DNA from: a virus
Taxonomy: Duplodnaviria; Caudoviricetes
DNA length: 37,217 bases
Reading direction: 5' to 3' (one strand)
Virus record (IMG/VR): IMGVR_UViG_3300017754_003015
Location: 1 to 37,217 of that record
Under the pieces are notes generated by a model, which had not been told where the DNA came from, ran no database searches, and was given only the letters and a program-made list of their open reading frames with translations. How positions within the stretch are numbered: the stretch's first letter is position 1; each line of letters begins with the position of its first letter. Position numbers and translations under genes: made by a program. Below, in pieces: positions 9,899 through 29,099 of this stretch.

Positions 9899-10312
9899 AT
9901 GAATAATTTATATGAAACAGACTGCTGTGCATGGGTAGAGGTACAGACTGAACTTTTAAAGAAAGGTTACTTTGACAAGCTAGATATAGAAAACATAATA
10001 GAGGAGTTGATTTCTGTGGGTAATTCTGAGAGAAACAAACTGGTAAGTCACTTAGTGATTTTAATGCTACATATGCTAAAGATAAAGTATCAGCCTGTTA
10101 TGCACACTAGGTCATGGGATTTGTCTATAAAAAATGCTAGAAAACAAGCCATGGATACAATACAAGATAATCCAAGTTTAAAATCCAGTTTACATGCATT
10201 AATTAAAAGGGCTTATTCTTATGCAAGGTTAGAAGCTGCAAAAGAAACAGGCCAAGAAGAAGAAACATTTCCTGAGGTATGCCCATGGACTGTAGAGGAA
10301 ATTTTATCATGA
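9899..10312 (+). CDS. DUF29 family protein
   Basis: LYETD..AW...Q..LL, LDIENIIEEL..VG.SE, LHMLK..YQP...RSW..SI, NPSLK, ETG....FP..CPW. Confidence 0.9.
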   Translation: MNNLYETDCCAWVEVQTELLKKGYFDKLDIENIIEELISVGNSERNKLVSHLVILMLHMLKIKYQPVMHTRSWDLSIKNARKQAMDTIQDNPSLKSSLHALIKRAYSYARLEAAKETGQEEETFPEVCPWTVEEILS

Positions 10313-20239: not shown

Positions 20240-21202
20240 TTATGAAGGTAGATAAGTGGTCACGTTAAGACCGCTAATCCAGTTCTGATTAGTAATCGCG
20301 CGAGCGATAGCGAATTTCGCATACAATTGGCTGTTTTGAGCCACAGAAGATACAACCCACGGTGGACGGTAACCAATGACAGCTGTGTAATTGTTTTGTT
20401 CAATTTTGGCAGCTGCTTCTAGTCCGTACATTGGTATTGTATAAACTGTATTACCTCTCATAGAGATACCAGGAATTTTTGCTCCTTTAGAGGAAACAAA
20501 GAAACGGAATCGGCTAATAGAGCAATACTCTTCTGGACGCAATCCTTCTTGTGTTGGGTAAGCAGATTTAAGCAATACACCTTGTACTTTCTGTAAGTCA
20601 GAAGATAAGTTAGTGTTTGCTAACGCAATGAATGCATCTCTAACACCAGCTGTACCGATTTCACGTGTAGCTTCTAGATTAGTTAGCATTGAACGAGCGT
20701 CGTTACCAAGTAGAATGTTTTCTACGTTGTTAACGTCGTTAAGAGATAGGTTAGATGGCTGATCACCATTCAAACCGCCTGTTGCGTTGATATAGGAAAC
20801 ACTAGAAGCAAACAAGTCTCTCATCAAGAGATCTTCTTTCTCACGTAACCACTGTCCTAGCAATGCTGTGAACTTGGTTAGAGTCTTGCTATTCTCATAC
20901 AATATTACCTGTTCATTGGTCACGATAGACTTGGCGTATATCTCCATAGTCGCATCGATATCTGTACGAACTGGCACTTCAGAAGCAGGGTCAATACCTG
21001 AGCCATCAAGCTGTCCACCATCTGTTGATAGACGCTCAAAACGGCTCATACGTGTTGTTTTACCGACATAACTTTCGGCATGGTGAAGATCAACTCCAAT
21101 GGAGTGGATCAAGTTGAACATAGGTGTTGACAATAGGTCTTCTGCTGCCTGTAAAGGAAGCTCAGGAGACATATTGTTGATATTGGTAATACCAGTAGCC
21201 AT
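20240..21202 (-). CDS. Major capsid protein (N4-gp56-like, HK97 fold)
   Basis: 320 aa after the scaffold; GKTTRMSRFERL, EGLRPEEYCSISRFRFFVSS, AITNQNWI patterns. Confidence 0.8.
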   Translation of the reverse strand: MATGITNINNMSPELPLQAAEDLLSTPMFNLIHSIGVDLHHAESYVGKTTRMSRFERLSTDGGQLDGSGIDPASEVPVRTDIDATMEIYAKSIVTNEQVILYENSKTLTKFTALLGQWLREKEDLLMRDLFASSVSYINATGGLNGDQPSNLSLNDVNNVENILLGNDARSMLTNLEATREIGTAGVRDAFIALANTNLSSDLQKVQGVLLKSAYPTQEGLRPEEYCSISRFRFFVSSKGAKIPGISMRGNTVYTIPMYGLEAAAKIEQNNYTAVIGYRPPWVVSSVAQNSQLYAKFAIARAITNQNWISGLNVTTYLPS

Positions 21203-21338: not shown

Positions 21339-21494
21339 TTATTTATTATCAATTTCTTCTGGGATAAATCTGTCTAAAAAAGAAGCAATAACACCCAAAT
21401 AATACATTGCGCGTTTTATATCATCATCTTCCCCTATGTATCTAGCTATATCTGTTACCCTAGTTCTAACATATTCAATATCTTTTATTTTCAT
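21339..21494 (-). CDS. Hypothetical 51-aa protein
   Basis: Start MKIKDIEY overlaps the scaffold stop (TGATG). Confidence 0.5.
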   Translation of the reverse strand: MKIKDIEYVRTRVTDIARYIGEDDDIKRAMYYLGVIASFLDRFIPEEIDNK

Positions 21495-22261
21495 CAACTT
21501 AACCCCTTGAGGCTTTTTTGCATTCGGCTCCAATTCTCTGCCCTTCTCTCTGCTGTTAACCTTGCACTACTTACACTTTCACCGCTTGGTGTCATGGTAG
21601 AGCCAGACATAGACTTTGGTTTATTTTGATTAATTTCAGCCCTTTGAGCTTCTTTTTTTGCTGTTGTTGAGTTTGGAACAAATTTCTTAATAGCGTGATA
21701 AACATCTGACCATGTATCGAATCCCTCACCTAACCTTTTTAATGGCCTTACTATCTCTGGGTAATGGTATTCAAGATAATCAAAGTTTTCATCTGTTACT
21801 ATCTTTTCAAAATCGGGGTATGTTTGGTTTAACCGTTGGGGATATTCCCTTTGTTCCTTTTCTCTTCTTTCTTTTTCAATAGCTGCTTCACGTGCTGCTA
21901 ATGCAGCATTCACTTTCTTCTCTATTCGTTGCTCTTCTGTCTCTTCATACTGAAATGCACTATTATCTACTAAATTAGTAGATCCTCCTAGGTAATTATT
22001 GGGCTGCTTACTAAACGCCGCTTCCATTGCAGCTCTTAAAGCGGCTGCCTCAGCTTCTTTCTCTTCTGCTCTTTTTTCAGCTAATCTCTTTTCCTCTCTG
22101 GTTTTTTTCATTTGCTCACGGTAAGCTTTCCAGTTTGGGTTTTCTGGTTGCGCTTCTTCTTGTTGAATCAAACTTGCATCAACTTTTTGTTGATCCGTAT
22201 TTGTGTCAACTTTTTCTTGAATTACTTCAATTTGTGGTATATTTTCAGGTGTATTATTCAC
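21494..22261 (-). CDS. Capsid scaffolding protein
   Basis: Acidic N-terminus, long coiled coil, YPDFEKIV motif; upstream of the capsid gene; GTG start with AAGGGG RBS. Confidence 0.75.
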   Translation of the reverse strand: MNNTPENIPQIEVIQEKVDTNTDQQKVDASLIQQEEAQPENPNWKAYREQMKKTREEKRLAEKRAEEKEAEAAALRAAMEAAFSKQPNNYLGGSTNLVDNSAFQYEETEEQRIEKKVNAALAAREAAIEKERREKEQREYPQRLNQTYPDFEKIVTDENFDYLEYHYPEIVRPLKRLGEGFDTWSDVYHAIKKFVPNSTTAKKEAQRAEINQNKPKSMSGSTMTPSGESVSSARLTAERRAENWSRMQKSLKGLS

Positions 22262-22273
22262 GGAGACCCCTTT

Positions 22274-22567
22274 ATGGTTGATAATTTAGACGAAATGAAA
22301 TTGGAACATGATTTAAAAATGCAACAAGTGAAAGAAGAGGTGTTAAGAAAGTTAACAGAATATAGAAAAACAATGTCATATTTATATGCGGACGCTCCCA
22401 TTACTGTGCTTTGTCTTCCTCCTGTTATACAAAAATCACTACTCGACCATGGCTGCTTGCGTGTCTACGACCTCTTTGATCTCGATTTTACTAAAGTCAA
22501 AGGACTCGGCGATTCTCGTATCAGGCAACTTACATCCTGCCTTGATCAGTTCCTCTCTATGCTTTGA
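22274..22567 (+). CDS. RNA polymerase alpha-CTD-like (HhH) protein, antisense to the late operon
   Basis: GGAG RBS at 22262; PITVLCLPPVIQKSLLDHGCLRVYDL...FTKVKGLGDSRIRQLTSCL follows the alpha-CTD helix/HhH pattern. Confidence 0.65.
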   Translation: MVDNLDEMKLEHDLKMQQVKEEVLRKLTEYRKTMSYLYADAPITVLCLPPVIQKSLLDHGCLRVYDLFDLDFTKVKGLGDSRIRQLTSCLDQFLSML

Positions 22568-23050
22568 TATGTATTCTCTCTCGGATAGCATGTCTATGTT
22601 TTGATCGTGTCTTATGTAATCCCAGAATGTGCCGTTATGAAATGCGATACTCCACGCTTGCATAGTCTCATATTCTTTGGGGACTACAGGCTTCTCACAT
22701 AGCTCAGCCATTGTGAATGCGTTAGGCAACACCCATAAGCGCTTAGTTATCTTGTCTAGTGGCTTGTTATAAAGGAACACAGCTTGATTTGGTCGTGGGG
22801 ATGGTAAGTATGGCCAAGCGTAATACTTTATACGCTTTAATCCATGAATGAGGTTGTCTGTAGCGATTATACGAACAATACAAAACTCATCTTCCATGAT
22901 GATATTCTTGTGTTTCTCTATGCAGTCACGTAATTGCTTATCTATGTCATGGCACATAGCTTCACCCACTTCACGTGCTAAATACTTTGTGTTGTCTTGC
23001 CTAGCTTTCTTAGCTAATACGCTAGCTGCAATGGGATGTTTAGTTATCAA
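22439..23050 (-). CDS. Hypothetical phage protein in the head module
   Basis: 203 aa; GGAG RBS; YLPSPRPNQAVFLYNK...LWVLP motif. Confidence 0.75.
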   Translation of the reverse strand: MITKHPIAASVLAKKARQDNTKYLAREVGEAMCHDIDKQLRDCIEKHKNIIMEDEFCIVRIIATDNLIHGLKRIKYYAWPYLPSPRPNQAVFLYNKPLDKITKRLWVLPNAFTMAELCEKPVVPKEYETMQAWSIAFHNGTFWDYIRHDQNIDMLSEREYISKHREELIKAGCKLPDTRIAESFDFSKIEIKEVVDTQAAMVE

Positions 23051-23296: not shown

Positions 23297-23494
23297 TCAA
23301 TGATCACACTCTTTTTCATAACATTTTTGTATTAATAATGAGTCTAATTCTTTTTTAACTCTATAAATCCCATCCATACACTTAAATTCTATAAGATCAT
23401 CAAAAATACCTACTTCAATTATTTCAGAAGGTAACTCAAAACAACCAAAGCTACTATTGAACCTTTTACCCATAGTTAATATTTTCTCACTCAA
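23297..23494 (-). CDS. Hypothetical protein
   Basis: 65 aa; start overlaps the upstream stop. Confidence 0.5.
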   Translation of the reverse strand: MSEKILTMGKRFNSSFGCFELPSEIIEVGIFDDLIEFKCMDGIYRVKKELDSLLIQKCYEKECDH

Positions 23495-23703
23495 TGGTCA
23501 CACTCGTTAGTTTTAACATGTGTACATGGTCTTTTACGTGGCCCCATTGGGTTAAATGCGTCACGTGGATTAGGAGCGCCATCTGGTGTTAGATTCATGT
23601 TAATCTCCCACTGCTCATTAGGTACAGCTCTACCGCTACCGTGTTTGATAACGTCTGCTGTCCTGTTCTTTAGGTAATCAGGTGCATGGTGTACTTTTTT
23701 CAT
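23491..23703 (-). CDS. Hypothetical protein
   Basis: 70 aa; AGGA RBS. Confidence 0.65.
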   Translation of the reverse strand: MKKVHHAPDYLKNRTADVIKHGSGRAVPNEQWEINMNLTPDGAPNPRDAFNPMGPRKRPCTHVKTNECDH

Positions 23704-23780: not shown

Positions 23781-23978
23781 TTAATGTTTTGCTTTATGTG
23801 AACTAACATATTTATTTAGTTTAGTCACACCTTCTTTAAGATGCTCTGGATTGCTCATCTCTCCGGATGTGTATTTAACATCTGACATACCTGGTTCACC
23901 TGGTTTATGCTCCCAGTGTCCTTCGTTAAACTGTGGCATTGCTGCCTTTGTTGCATGTGCTTCTTTACTGTGTGCCAT
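23781..23978 (-). CDS. Small His/Lys-rich protein
   Basis: 65 aa; AAGGAG RBS. Confidence 0.7.
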   Translation of the reverse strand: MAHSKEAHATKAAMPQFNEGHWEHKPGEPGMSDVKYTSGEMSNPEHLKEGVTKLNKYVSSHKAKH

Positions 23979-24400: not shown

Positions 24401-26443
24401 TCATCCTGCCATTGCAGGTATTTTATTTAACATTTCTTCTTCCCTATCCATCTTATTAGCCTGCTTAATAGCTTGAGCGTGCTCAAAAGATGAACGGAAC
24501 TGATTGAATTGCAAGTCCTCTAACTCAACCATCATTTTGACAAGATCAAGATCAGATTTCATGTTCTTGTGCTCTGCTCCAGCTTGCAGATCGTCTGCTT
24601 TTGCTTGTGTTTCCTGTATCTTAGCCATATTCAACTTGGATTTAGCAAACAGATCCATAATCTTCGCGTTATCTATTTTTTCTTGTTGCTGAGCTTGCTG
24701 TTGCGCTTGTTGCTGCTGTCCTTGCATCTGTTCTTCCATATCTGCAATAACTTGTCGTTTATTGGTAATGAAAGCAGCCCTGATAATTGACTTATCAGAA
24801 ATCTGGATTCCGAGTTCTTTAAAGTGTAGGAGTTGCTGAAGTTCTGTTTGACGTTGCGTAGTGGAATAGTTACCTTCCTCCACTGCAACAGCATATTTTT
24901 GTGAGTGAGAAGTAAAGAAACGTGGATCTGCATCATGACCCAATATGTTTTTAATCTTACCCTTACTGAAGTTTTTACGAATGGCTTGAAGCCTGATTTT
25001 TCCATATAATCTTTGGGAATAATCAAGTTTGTCAAATATGGTCTGTAAGGTGGTGAGACCAGCTCCCTGCCGTAGCATAGATAATATCCCAGATTTATCA
25101 TCTGTCGCTGATCCCAAAAGCTCTTCATTAACACCTGATATTTTAGTAATATCTTCTGCTAAACTGTTTGATAATTCAAGTAAAGATTGAGGAATAGATA
25201 CTGGCTCTATCCTTTGTATCTCGTTGGGTAAGTGGCCTGCCTTTAATGGAATTAAGAAGCCATCCCCACCACTTGTCTGTCTAAATGCTTTAGTATCTGT
25301 TACCACATCAACAGGATATATCCAACCAGCGTTTAAAGATGACTGAAGTAACTGAAGCTCAATGACTTTTCTTAAATTGTATAAAAATTGAGAATCAATT
25401 AGCCCAGCCACTATGCCCTGTTTACGCCAAGCATATGACACAACATCTTGGTCTACATATGTTTGACAAGGCACAAAAGGGTATGCGTCTATCCCAAGTA
25501 AATTTTTACCATGATATACAATATGATCACCTAGCTTAATCACAAGCTTAGTTGTGGGTATTTGTACATTCTGTACTTTAAGCCAAGGTTGCTGTCTCAT
25601 GACTTGATCTAGCATGTCATCGTCTTCTGTCTCATCCTCATTCCATTCAGTCGTTTCACCCGTCATTGGGTCTAGGATGATTTTACCGGGTCTTGAGGTG
25701 GCGTAATAGAATTCGTCATAGGAAAACAGTTTGTTTGTAGCTACGTTTTGTAACTCAGCTTGCATGGGAAAGCGACCATCTTTCATGCCACCTGAACGCA
25801 TCTTATCTATTTCTTTGGCATACCCTGGGATAAGCGTCTTAGCCATTTCTTTAGACACCCAACGTCTACGCCATATCCCGTTACAGTCAGATAAATCTTG
25901 CTTGCGTGTGTAGGAATCAATTAGATAATTATTATAACTTACAGCGTCAGTAAATAAGTCACCTGAGATAGGATCGAAAGTATAATCAGGGTATATATGT
26001 AATAGCGTCTCTCCTGTGTCAACTGCACCCTCAAATGCTTGGGATAGATATTCCTGGAAGCCGTCTCTATCATCGCACCAACGCATCACTTTGTTATAGT
26101 CATCGGCTACTTGGTCATCCTGCTCCCCTACAGGAATAGTGATAGTGGATTTCCGGTTTTTACGCTGAAACCCACATATCATATTAACGTGACGGCAAAT
26201 CAAGTTAAAGAAGAACTTTTGTGCATTTTGGTAATTACTACCATAGAATTGGGACTGTAGTTGCTGATCGCCTACTTTGAAACGCTTTGCTATAGCTCCC
26301 CGTAACCAGTAGGTAGAGTTAATTGGATAATTCGTTAAATAGAAATTATCCATCATTTGTTTCAGGTTCTTGTTATCTCTGTCTGATGGGTCGACAAAGC
26401 CACTCATGGAAGTGTTGTAATTTCCGGATTCATATGAGCCCAT
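24401..26443 (-). CDS. Portal protein (P22-like)
   Basis: 680 aa; FNLICRHVNMICGFQRKNR, YPFVP, GIVAGLIDSQFLYN, ISGVNEELLG...SG, Gln-rich C-terminal barrel. Confidence 0.9.
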   Translation of the reverse strand: MGSYESGNYNTSMSGFVDPSDRDNKNLKQMMDNFYLTNYPINSTYWLRGAIAKRFKVGDQQLQSQFYGSNYQNAQKFFFNLICRHVNMICGFQRKNRKSTITIPVGEQDDQVADDYNKVMRWCDDRDGFQEYLSQAFEGAVDTGETLLHIYPDYTFDPISGDLFTDAVSYNNYLIDSYTRKQDLSDCNGIWRRRWVSKEMAKTLIPGYAKEIDKMRSGGMKDGRFPMQAELQNVATNKLFSYDEFYYATSRPGKIILDPMTGETTEWNEDETEDDDMLDQVMRQQPWLKVQNVQIPTTKLVIKLGDHIVYHGKNLLGIDAYPFVPCQTYVDQDVVSYAWRKQGIVAGLIDSQFLYNLRKVIELQLLQSSLNAGWIYPVDVVTDTKAFRQTSGGDGFLIPLKAGHLPNEIQRIEPVSIPQSLLELSNSLAEDITKISGVNEELLGSATDDKSGILSMLRQGAGLTTLQTIFDKLDYSQRLYGKIRLQAIRKNFSKGKIKNILGHDADPRFFTSHSQKYAVAVEEGNYSTTQRQTELQQLLHFKELGIQISDKSIIRAAFITNKRQVIADMEEQMQGQQQQAQQQAQQQEKIDNAKIMDLFAKSKLNMAKIQETQAKADDLQAGAEHKNMKSDLDLVKMMVELEDLQFNQFRSSFEHAQAIKQANKMDREEEMLNKIPAMAG

Positions 26444-26776: not shown

Positions 26777-27094
26777 TTAATCAAATAACCCTTCTTCAAT
26801 ATGCTTGAACTCTTCTTTGTGAAACTTCCATAAATGCTTAAGGTGTTCTATAAGTTCTTCACCTGATCCGACATCAAATAAATTACCCACTTCCCCATTC
26901 TCCGGTAAGTACCATTTCACAATAGTTAATCCATCTATGTCTTTAACATCTATAGCTAACCTGCCACATTTTGGACATTCCCACACATTACGGTCTTTAT
27001 ATTCATAACAACCCCTTAAGTCTCCTTCCATAGTATTTGGACAAACGGTATTGGATAATCTATTTCCGCAATTACACCTTAATGATGCCATCAA
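26777..27094 (-). CDS. Cys-rich (zinc-ribbon) hypothetical protein
   Basis: CNCG and ECPKCGR motifs. Confidence 0.65.
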
Positions 27095-27768
27095 AACCCC
27101 TGTATCTGACTGTTAAATTGTACATTATAACCATATTCTTCTAAAAATTCTTTAGCCCATTTTATTTTATCTTCCACCCTTTGTCCCGCTGGCTGTCCTT
27201 TATGCCATAATTCAAGGTTTTCTATTCTGTTGTCGTCTTTTATACCATTTTTATGGTGTACATTTTCACCTTTTCTTAATGGACGACCCAAATGTTCGGA
27301 CATAATATAAGTGTGTTCTAGTATTTTATTTCCTCTATGACAATTTGGATGATTTGGTCTTGATATAACCTTATATCCTTGATTGGTTAAGTGTCCTTCT
27401 TGCCCAGTTTTTGATTTTATTTTTAAACGACATTCTTTACTACACGTTAAATTTAACATATATCTATCGAACACAAATAATTTATTGCAAGCTATACACA
27501 AACCCTCCATTCCATCTTTTTTACTATTTCTTCTCCGTTTAGCTTTACAAGCATTTGAACAGTACAATCTTTTTGAAAGTGACTGATATTCGAATTCCTT
27601 ATCACAAGTTTTGCATTTTTCTTTTATAATTGGTCTTCTTGAAACGTACTCAATAGCTAATTCTTTTCTTCTTAATCTTCCTTGATCGCTTCTCCAATAT
27701 TCAGAAGCTTTTATCCTAGCTGACCTCATATTTTCAGATTGAATCTTTCTTAGTTTTTCCTTTTCCAT
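27091..27768 (-). CDS. HNH endonuclease with zinc-finger repeats
   Basis: [14 protein letters not shown]...[19 protein letters not shown]; two CxxC...CSxxC units; start placed at MEKEK after a GGAGG RBS. Confidence 0.9.
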
Positions 27769-27821
27769 AAATCCTCCATGATAATAGTTACTATTATACC
27801 ATATCGGATATACCATATCAA

Positions 27822-29099
27822 TCAAAAAACATTAATGTCTTGATTAAACTGAGAATACATATCATTATTTTGGAACACATGTCTTCTTAGTTGATCATAA
27901 GACATATAGTCGTCTGGATTACTAAACTCTCCACTCTTCATAAATGGCGTTAGGCTATATCTTAATGCGTCATTTGCATGGTCTAAATGCTTAATAGGTT
28001 TATCCTCACCTCTCTCACTTGCCTTTGGACACCACGCATAGCTCTGTAATTGCTCTATCAAATTCTTACAAGCCGCTTGAACCACTATATTTTTACCAGC
28101 TATAAACTTATTGCATGTCTTTATCCCTAGCAACACATCATTATTAGCATCTATTACAGGTAAATCAGCTTGTCTGAGTGCTATTTTAAAGCTTGCTGCT
28201 GCTGGGTCAACATAAATGGCTTGCACATTCTTGTATCCCACAAATTCTTTAATATCTTTCACAAGCTCTGCATCTGTTTTAGGTCTACCTGTGATGGCTG
28301 AATCGTAATAATATTCTGACTCTACCCTAAATTGTGGCCATGAATGAGGAGAAACAGCTCCAAGAACTGCTGCCGTGGCGTTAGTTGTTCCATAATCTAT
28401 ACCAACCAAATAATAATTTGGATTAGATTGTGGGTGAGTGTAAATATTATCATTATCAAAATCTGGGTATATAGCTCCTGTGGCTTGACACCAAAGTCCT
28501 TGGATAAACCTTTTATGCCAAACACCTGTAAAAGAAGACTTAATTGCGTTTTTGTAAGCTTCATCTAATACAGGGTTATCATCTAAATGGAAATTCCAAA
28601 ATACTAAATCATGTATGTCTTGTCTATCTAAATATTGCTTCTTGAGCCAGTGTGCAGGCGAAGTTGGATTACAGGTAGCCAATAATTTAGCGCCCGGTAC
28701 GCTTAAACGTGTTTCTAACATCTTAAAGAACGGCTCTGGTATACATGTGCATTCATCAATATAAGCCAAAGCGAGCGTGCTTCCTTGAATAGTAGTTACA
28801 GCTGAAACGTCAGGCGCACCAACGAAATACACATCACGACCATAAAGTTGTGTCTTATTACACATTGGTGAAGGACAAGGAAAACCAAGACGTTTATATA
28901 AGTGAGTGAGTACGTTTCTGTGAATAGTTGAACGGTTAACGCCAATAATCATGGCATCACCGGGAGGCCCATTCTTTAAATCAAATATAAATCTCTCAAT
29001 ACTAGAGAAAGTCTTCCCTGACCTTACAGCCCCCACCCAAATATTGAATCTATGTGTAGCTTCACAGAATGATTTATCCTGTTTAGGACTCGTTGGCAC
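27822..29099 (-). CDS. terL: Terminase large subunit (PBSX-like)
   Basis: Walker A GAVRSGKT, Walker [30 protein letters not shown]. Confidence 0.95.

Follow-up and report, generated by a model that had tools for sequence, protein, structure and literature searches.

The alpha subunit's C-terminal domain in RNA polymerase (alpha-CTD; PF03118, with structures such as 1doq, 1z3e_B and 3gfk_B) has a DNA-binding surface, the 265 determinant, listed in PMC10853779 as R265, N268, N294, G296, K298, S299 and E302, and a 261 determinant that is described in PMC1874639 as contacting sigma region 4. Phage proteins that have this fold without the rest of alpha are labelled 'RNA polymerase alpha subunit, C-terminal' in BFVD (E 0.03–1.2), among them A0A6J5MNY7, A0A5Q2WLP1 from Mycobacterium phage Mithril and A0A2P1JY10 from Rhodococcus phage Finch, so annotation already recognises alpha-CTD folds carried by phages. 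Phages also make counter-transcripts complementary to a start region, as in P22 sar and lambda OOP and PaQ. Antisense overlaps between viral genes account for 6.6% of all viral overlaps in the figures given in bioRxiv 10.1101/2021.06.10.447953, where those in the -0 frame have a median length of 114 nt (IQR 27–267).

The locus described here lies in a window of 37,217 bp, by which we mean the whole stretch of DNA analysed, a complete virus genome with direct terminal repeats. A preliminary description of this sequence had proposed that a short plus-strand gene inside the head operon, here gene A, encodes an alpha-CTD mimic that modulates transcription and whose message is antisense to the late transcript. 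In the open papers (main texts) that our literature search covered, nothing was found on the A family or on any alpha-CTD-like phage gene that overlaps a head gene.

Results

Gene A is a conserved plus-strand gene in a minus-strand head module

The minus strand carries most of the window's genes, including those for an O-like replication protein, a methyltransferase, a resolvase, terminase, portal, capsid and tail proteins. Gene A (22274..22567) is read from the plus strand, with its ATG at 22274 and its stop ending at 22567, and encodes 97 aa with a predicted long N-terminal helix (residues 3–38) followed by a predicted alpha-CTD/HhH-fold domain (residues 40–95). It stands head-to-head with a minus-strand gene of 255 aa (21494..22261; GTG start at 22261–22259), a putative scaffolding gene by its place before the capsid gene, which matches no family in Pfam, PHROGs or NCBIfam; the 12-nt distance between the two divergent starts is as first described. 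The N4-gp56-family major capsid protein (20240..21202, minus; TIGR04387, 66.6 bits against a cut-off of 60) and, upstream, a P22-like portal protein (24401..26443, minus; PF16510, E 1.1e-64) belong to the same run of genes. The 3′ part of A overlaps the minus-strand gene B (22439..23050), which encodes a conserved protein of 203 aa whose family and fold are not known.

Loci retrieved with A give no information on its loss; the unbiased test is provided by loci retrieved with B only. In all 80 of the B-fetched loci (the best 80 of 169, duplicates included) A is present as a single uninterrupted frame, matched at E<=9e-26, and overlaps B by 120–210 nt in the same phase; stops in the plus frame of relatives, which would have spoken against the gene, do not occur in this set. 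Across all loci at that stage an A match was present in 262/262, with A and B both complete in 258. The 147 loci that are distinct from one another (<85% shared 12-mers) have overlaps of 99–252 nt, exactly 129 nt in 65 of them. A distant A subgroup used as query added 67 further loci, all with the same layout, of which 14 were distinct, bringing the total to 161; for the most distant subgroup (A6) no viral locus was found. The tree over 94 of the distinct loci has a length of 31.5. Intact in 80/80 B-fetched loci (best 80 of 169) and identically placed in 161 distinct ones, A behaves as a core gene rather than a swappable accessory. None of the cultured phages in INPHARED matches A or B; MW202713.1, the sole distant capsid match there, has neither gene in the 14.7 kb examined.

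Several features of the surrounding module were noted in passing. Two small His/Lys-rich ORFs of 70 and 65 aa (23491–23703 and 23781–23978, minus), which match nothing in Pfam or PHROGs, are shared by most of loci L001–L009, where they lie between portal and B, and are possibly internal head proteins. Genes for HNH-like endonucleases occupy varied insertion points, for example between scaffold and capsid in L002 (3177–3848) and between terminase and portal in the window (27091–27825); the A/B/scaffold junction, unlike these other points of the head module, showed no interruption. A DUF29 gene (9899–10312, plus; PF01724, E 9.7e-44) lies antisense within the tail region and is, besides A, a further counter-oriented gene in the late run.

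Family profiles and a fold model relate A to the alpha-CTD

A single A sequence yields no Pfam alpha-CTD, PHROG or NCBIfam match and no meaningful PDB sequence match. It stays below the Pfam cut-off for PF03118, and on the A family profile E. coli RpoA reaches no more than 3.1 bits. The alpha-CTD likeness emerges only from family profiles and the fold model. A profile search of 1.8 billion representatives returned 132 proteins; PF03118 is present in 28 of the 29 longer ones scanned and is matched by 17 of 124 family members at E<=0.1 (best 1.5e-6). Run against the PDB, the 124-sequence profile has RNAP alpha chains in its first 18 rows (best 1doq, E 1.8e-5), and the match covers A residues 40–95. 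The predicted model (pLDDT 94) consists of a helix at 3–38 and a domain at 40–96. In a Foldseek comparison, suggested at the outset as a check, the alpha-CTD is indeed the top class and superposes with an rmsd of 1.0–1.3 Å over 55–57 residues, but no PDB match reaches E<=0.001. VIA-align places A closest to the B. subtilis alpha-CTD (1z3e_B; Z 9.8, rmsd 1.7 Å, 61 residues aligned), followed by RAD51 N-terminal domains, AF1548 (8.2–8.4) and SAM domains over a range of Z 8.4–6.5; since these domains share the fold, the fold alone is no pointer to transcription. Profile and predicted fold thus agree that residues 40–95 are alpha-CTD-like, as had been read from the pattern of the C-terminal half, including KVKGLG at A74–79.

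Members of the family are 71–129 aa long in the alignment, and the alpha N-terminal assembly domain is absent. An independently built model of a relative superposes on that of A over 91 columns at 0.7 Å, which suggests that the N-terminal helix docks on the domain. Along this helix runs a heptad stripe at positions 19/23/27/30/34/37 that is 87–100% hydrophobic; its upper part would be free for a dimer, and A likely dimerises. The family-invariant residues are Y30 (123/124), D40, P42, L56, R63 (120/124) and F93, of which Y30, D40, R63 and F93 may do no more than pack the helix against the domain.

The DNA- and sigma-binding surfaces of the alpha-CTD are altered

Positions were mapped to E. coli RpoA through the family profile, at a score of 3.1 bits only and in a register that agrees with the Thermus and Bacillus alignments. 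The seven positions of the 265 determinant are occupied in A by V51, K54, G77, G79, S81, R82 and Q85, so that one residue of seven, G296, is retained. Among the 124 members, Arg is found at 265 in 8, Asn at 268 in 33, Lys at 298 in 13 and Gly at 296 in 75, whereas 41 of 80 alpha-CTD-like domains outside the family have Arg at the 265 position. At the 261 determinant (257–259 and 261) A has I43, T44, V45 and C47, the acidic residues being replaced by T/V/C, and 102/124 members have Cys at 261 itself. Three residues corresponding to E. coli 283–285 are deleted, which removes T285 of the 287 determinant; position 287 is variable, 288 is D71 (kept in 102/124), and 315–318 fall past the end of A by ungapped extension. 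By this mapping the UP-element and sigma-contact surfaces are not kept, and the proposal of an alpha-CTD mimic holds for the fold only. With the known surfaces altered, no named partner follows for A.

The G-h-G of the HhH turn is intact in 73/124 members, several carry KIEWLDD or KIEGLDD in its place, and the median net charge is -1; the turn counts and the charge lean against a DNA-binding role across the family. Judged from these sequences, A likely acts by contacting proteins and not by binding UP elements.

Shine-Dalgarno-like motifs of A and the scaffold gene are interleaved

The 12-nt spacer between the two starts (22262..22273, GGAGACCCCTTT) contains Shine-Dalgarno-like motifs for both genes, GGAG for A on the plus strand and AAAGGGG for the scaffold on the minus strand, confirming the interleaved ribosome-binding sites noticed earlier, and in many relatives the spacer is near-palindromic, GGAG-n-CTCC. 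Head-to-head starts 8–18 nt apart occur in 130 of the 144 distinct loci with a scaffold match. Counted with a choice of starts that favoured SD-like pairs, and with the shuffle control absent, an SD-like 4-mer stands on both strands in 91/130 loci, for the scaffold only in 23, for A only in 8 and for neither in 8; the order is always G-rich before C-rich. The late mRNA would span all of A together with its ribosome-binding site, so in its geometry the late transcript is antisense to the A message as proposed. Conversely, any A mRNA that includes its ribosome-binding site has to begin within the scaffold gene, which makes it complementary to that gene's start and ribosome-binding site.

Plus-strand scanning across loci found no conserved sigma70-type promoter upstream of A, the promoter scan of the window gave 2 matches against 4.9 expected, and downstream of A no conserved terminator was found. 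On the minus strand, within about codons 5–15 of A, a cluster of sigma70-like sites ending 29 nt before the scaffold start was seen in 17/130 loci; it is weak, was scored without a control, and may represent an internal promoter serving scaffold and capsid.

Both strands of the A/B overlap are under selection

The last 129 nt of A overlap the 3′ end of B (22439..22567, both strands), the extent originally reported, and the two frames are exactly codon-aligned over 43 codons: A56–98 lies opposite B162–204, codon i of A facing codon 260-i of B, with the B stop the reverse of the A L56 codon and the A stop the reverse of B S162. The overlap spans about 70% of the folded domain of A. In 94 distinct loci (9/188 were left out as truncated), antisense stops in A codons 59–97 number 3 in 3663 codons against 314 expected, and in the B overlap codons 4 in 3383 against 136 expected, the expectations being derived from Leu/Ser codon use outside the overlap. 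Outside it, such stops number 258 in 3821 for A codons 14–54 and 783 in 14285 for B.

Substitution patterns lead to the same view. As uncorrected counts, the ratios in the overlap for the 10 closest independent pairs are 0.15 for A (pNN/pSN) and 0.15 for B (pNN/pNS), compared with 0.67 and 0.77 for control antisense frames outside the overlap; over 43 pairs they are 0.37 and 0.30, compared with 0.84 and 0.77. The non-overlapped part of A has a pN/pS of 0.15 in the 10 closest pairs, so the constraint on A is not that of B alone, and the synonymous variability of B falls from about 0.9 to 0.4–0.6 at the overlap. Individual columns show fixed residues on each side with the other frame yielding. 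F184, D185, F186 and K188 of B are invariant while their silent sites vary, toggling K/E, I/V and F/L in A; R63, D71, G77 and F93 of A are invariant, and there the residues or silent sites of B give way. This detail indicates constraint at the protein level on both strands. Purifying selection acts on both frames within the overlap.

One database protein, P0098, joins the N-terminal 67 residues of B to the C-terminal half of A. Since A and B are on opposite strands such a protein requires an inversion, and P0098 is probably an assembly or amplification chimera.

The tail of B is the probable newcomer

Sequence searches with B bring up 894 homologues and no PHROG family, and in the PDB no fold resembles it at Z>=5. 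The B model is confident up to roughly residue 170, after which pLDDT falls to 68, 51, 44 and 36 over the last blocks. Within this low-confidence tail (residues 171–203) lies the near-invariant F184-D185-F186-x-K188-I189, of which F184, D185, F186 and K188 are retained in 136–139 of 141, even where the preceding helix diverges. An invariant P-x-P-R-P-x-Q motif was also seen in the B family. Fold look-alikes of B are five phage proteins of 120–167 aa; a Phage_CRI/Rep_trans label, present on 13–18% of the top-cluster atlas look-alikes, was treated as weak and not adopted. A search for short, tail-less forms of B gave 32 proteins, and the 11 inspected resemble truncated, frameshifted or mis-started pieces.

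An overprinted frame can be recognised, in the terms used in PMC8227390, where one frame is wider in distribution and the other is restricted and disordered. The overlapping part of A matches the bacterial alpha-CTD, the tail of B has low pLDDT and the fold look-alikes of B are shorter than B, which on those terms suggests that the alpha-CTD frame is probably ancestral and the FDFxKI tail overprinted on A. In such a history, B would have run on into a pre-existing alpha-CTD frame, and the new tail would then have gained a selected motif of its own.

Discussion

The reading we tentatively prefer is that A is a dimeric, protein-binding regulator, expressed from a counter-transcript, that holds back head-gene expression until late transcription overruns it. 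A would be made from its own counter-transcript, starting inside the scaffold gene, and the A message and the late message would exclude each other through pairing and polymerase collision. Before the onset of late transcription the A protein would bind a host or phage transcription component and restrain late transcription, thereby braking or timing the expression of head genes. The arrangement would constitute a double-negative switch that flips once late transcription wins. The direction of the effect, brake rather than activator, is a guess, and an assembly role would account just as well for the constant place of A in the head module.

An assembly role is the first alternative to weigh. 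A could be a helper in head assembly or packaging that uses its fold to interact with B, scaffold, portal or terminase and whose orientation only sets a low or early dose, and we give this an appreciable, if minor, share of probability. A is always beside scaffold and B in the 161 distinct loci, SAM and RAD51-N domains are among its structural neighbours, and FDFxKI sits in the low-confidence tail of B, as a docking motif would. However, assembly factors are normally co-transcribed with structural genes, the head-to-head ribosome-binding sites would make the A and scaffold messages interfere, and the nearest class in both sequence and fold is the alpha-CTD.

Two further proposals are improbable, and to a similar degree. 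A might bind DNA non-specifically as an HhH protein, coating or bridging the phage's DNA for packaging or episome maintenance, as the G77-L78-G79 turn, the basic K74, K76, R82 and R84 of the window's A and the near-universal R63 would allow. Against this, the G-h-G is intact in only 73/124 members, KIEWLDD and KIEGLDD variants are found, the median net charge of the family is negative, and the choice of K or E at A 74 and 76 is set by the Phe codons of B. Alternatively, A might regulate late genes positively, as an alpha-CTD-like adaptor that switches on the late promoter or promotes antitermination and is then silenced by the late transcript, giving a pulse. Core-gene conservation and the same geometry suit this idea, as does the failure of the 59 ORFs to match a Q-like antiterminator or late activator in PHROGs. 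On the other side, the DNA-binding surface is absent and the counter-transcript would oppose the activator's own product at the scaffold ribosome-binding site. Binding of A to NusA AR2 would moreover need a host with AR domains; PMC4642336 describes AR1 and AR2 in E. coli and in several proteobacteria, and the host NusA here may lack AR2.

That A is a true mimic, binding UP elements or the sigma-4 surface, draws on the profile and fold match to the alpha-CTD, yet is very unlikely with one residue of the 265 determinant left in the window's A, R265 in so few members and the 261 acids absent. An antisense frame that is codon-aligned often stays open by chance, but the notion that A is a mere antisense shadow of B can be set aside with near certainty, given the intact frames, the selection on both strands, 55 of 97 A codons that lie outside B at a pN/pS of 0.15, a drop in B synonymous variation falling exactly at the overlap, about 17/94 frames expected open by chance, and the homology of A to the alpha-CTD.

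Returning to the braking regulator, its boldest extension is a clade-wide switch in which one stretch of DNA is read both ways: an alpha-CTD-derived regulator without a DNA surface, its antisense gene flanked on one side by a palindromic double ribosome-binding site and on the other by a B tail whose FDFxKI is the HhH loop read backwards, with mutually exclusive messages timing head assembly in phages that perhaps infect environmental chlamydiae. Taken as a whole we consider this unlikely. The host suggestion comes from two weak hints, one B homologue labelled Chlamydiales bacterium and a chromosomal protein family with an alpha-CTD-like domain; four genome-bin matches have unrelated labels on phage-sized contigs, and plasmid searches gave no information on the host.

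Much of the interest of the locus lies in the overlap. As natural examples of antisense dual coding go, A and B are unusually clean, with an ancient folded domain opposite a selected motif, and with 161 distinct genomes the persistence of both frames can be measured; how new protein sequence arises through antisense overprinting thereby becomes testable in a prokaryotic virus. With A, a core protein family that has had no name is also defined for a large group of uncultured phages, as is a candidate means of timing head genes through mutually antisense messages; the significance would be smaller if A is an ordinary small assembly helper.

Comparison with known systems

Relative to the RNAP alpha-CTD, with which it shares the profile match and a superposable predicted fold, A is without the alpha N-terminal domain, adds a 36-residue helix and has its own invariant Y30, D40, R63 and F93, besides the 283–285 deletion, the lost 265 and 261 determinants and a score below the Pfam cut-off. 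The annotated phage proteins in BFVD differ from A in being 128–240 aa long and 18–23% identical to it; two BFVD entries that belong to the A family, A0A6J5LGT9 and A0A6J5LGC0, are both 'uncharacterized'. Bacterial chromosomal proteins of 340–410 aa (P0162, P0142, P0167, P0147 and P0156) contain one internal alpha-CTD-like domain, are among the best-scoring outside domains (35–38 bits for four) and likewise have no Arg at 265, but are large proteins encoded among housekeeping genes. They stand near A in score and tree, their sister relation being an open fork at 80/75, and form the cluster of CDR33290.1 / WP_041016808.1, an accession that we take to be from Criblamydia (Chlamydiota). An invariant KG-x-GQGHI-x-EI motif was noted in this group (loci L331–L351).

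At 129 nt the A/B overlap is ordinary in length for the -0 class, set against the median given in bioRxiv 10.1101/2021.06.10.447953; it differs in covering most of a folded domain, in recurring across so many distinct genomes and in the equal selection on both frames. In contrast to P22 sar and lambda OOP and PaQ, the putative counter-transcript of A would be an mRNA whose ribosome-binding site is interleaved with that of its target. What stands out in A and B is the depth of conservation, the equal selection on a domain and on a motif read backwards through it, and the presence of a second, putatively regulatory overlap at the 5′ end.
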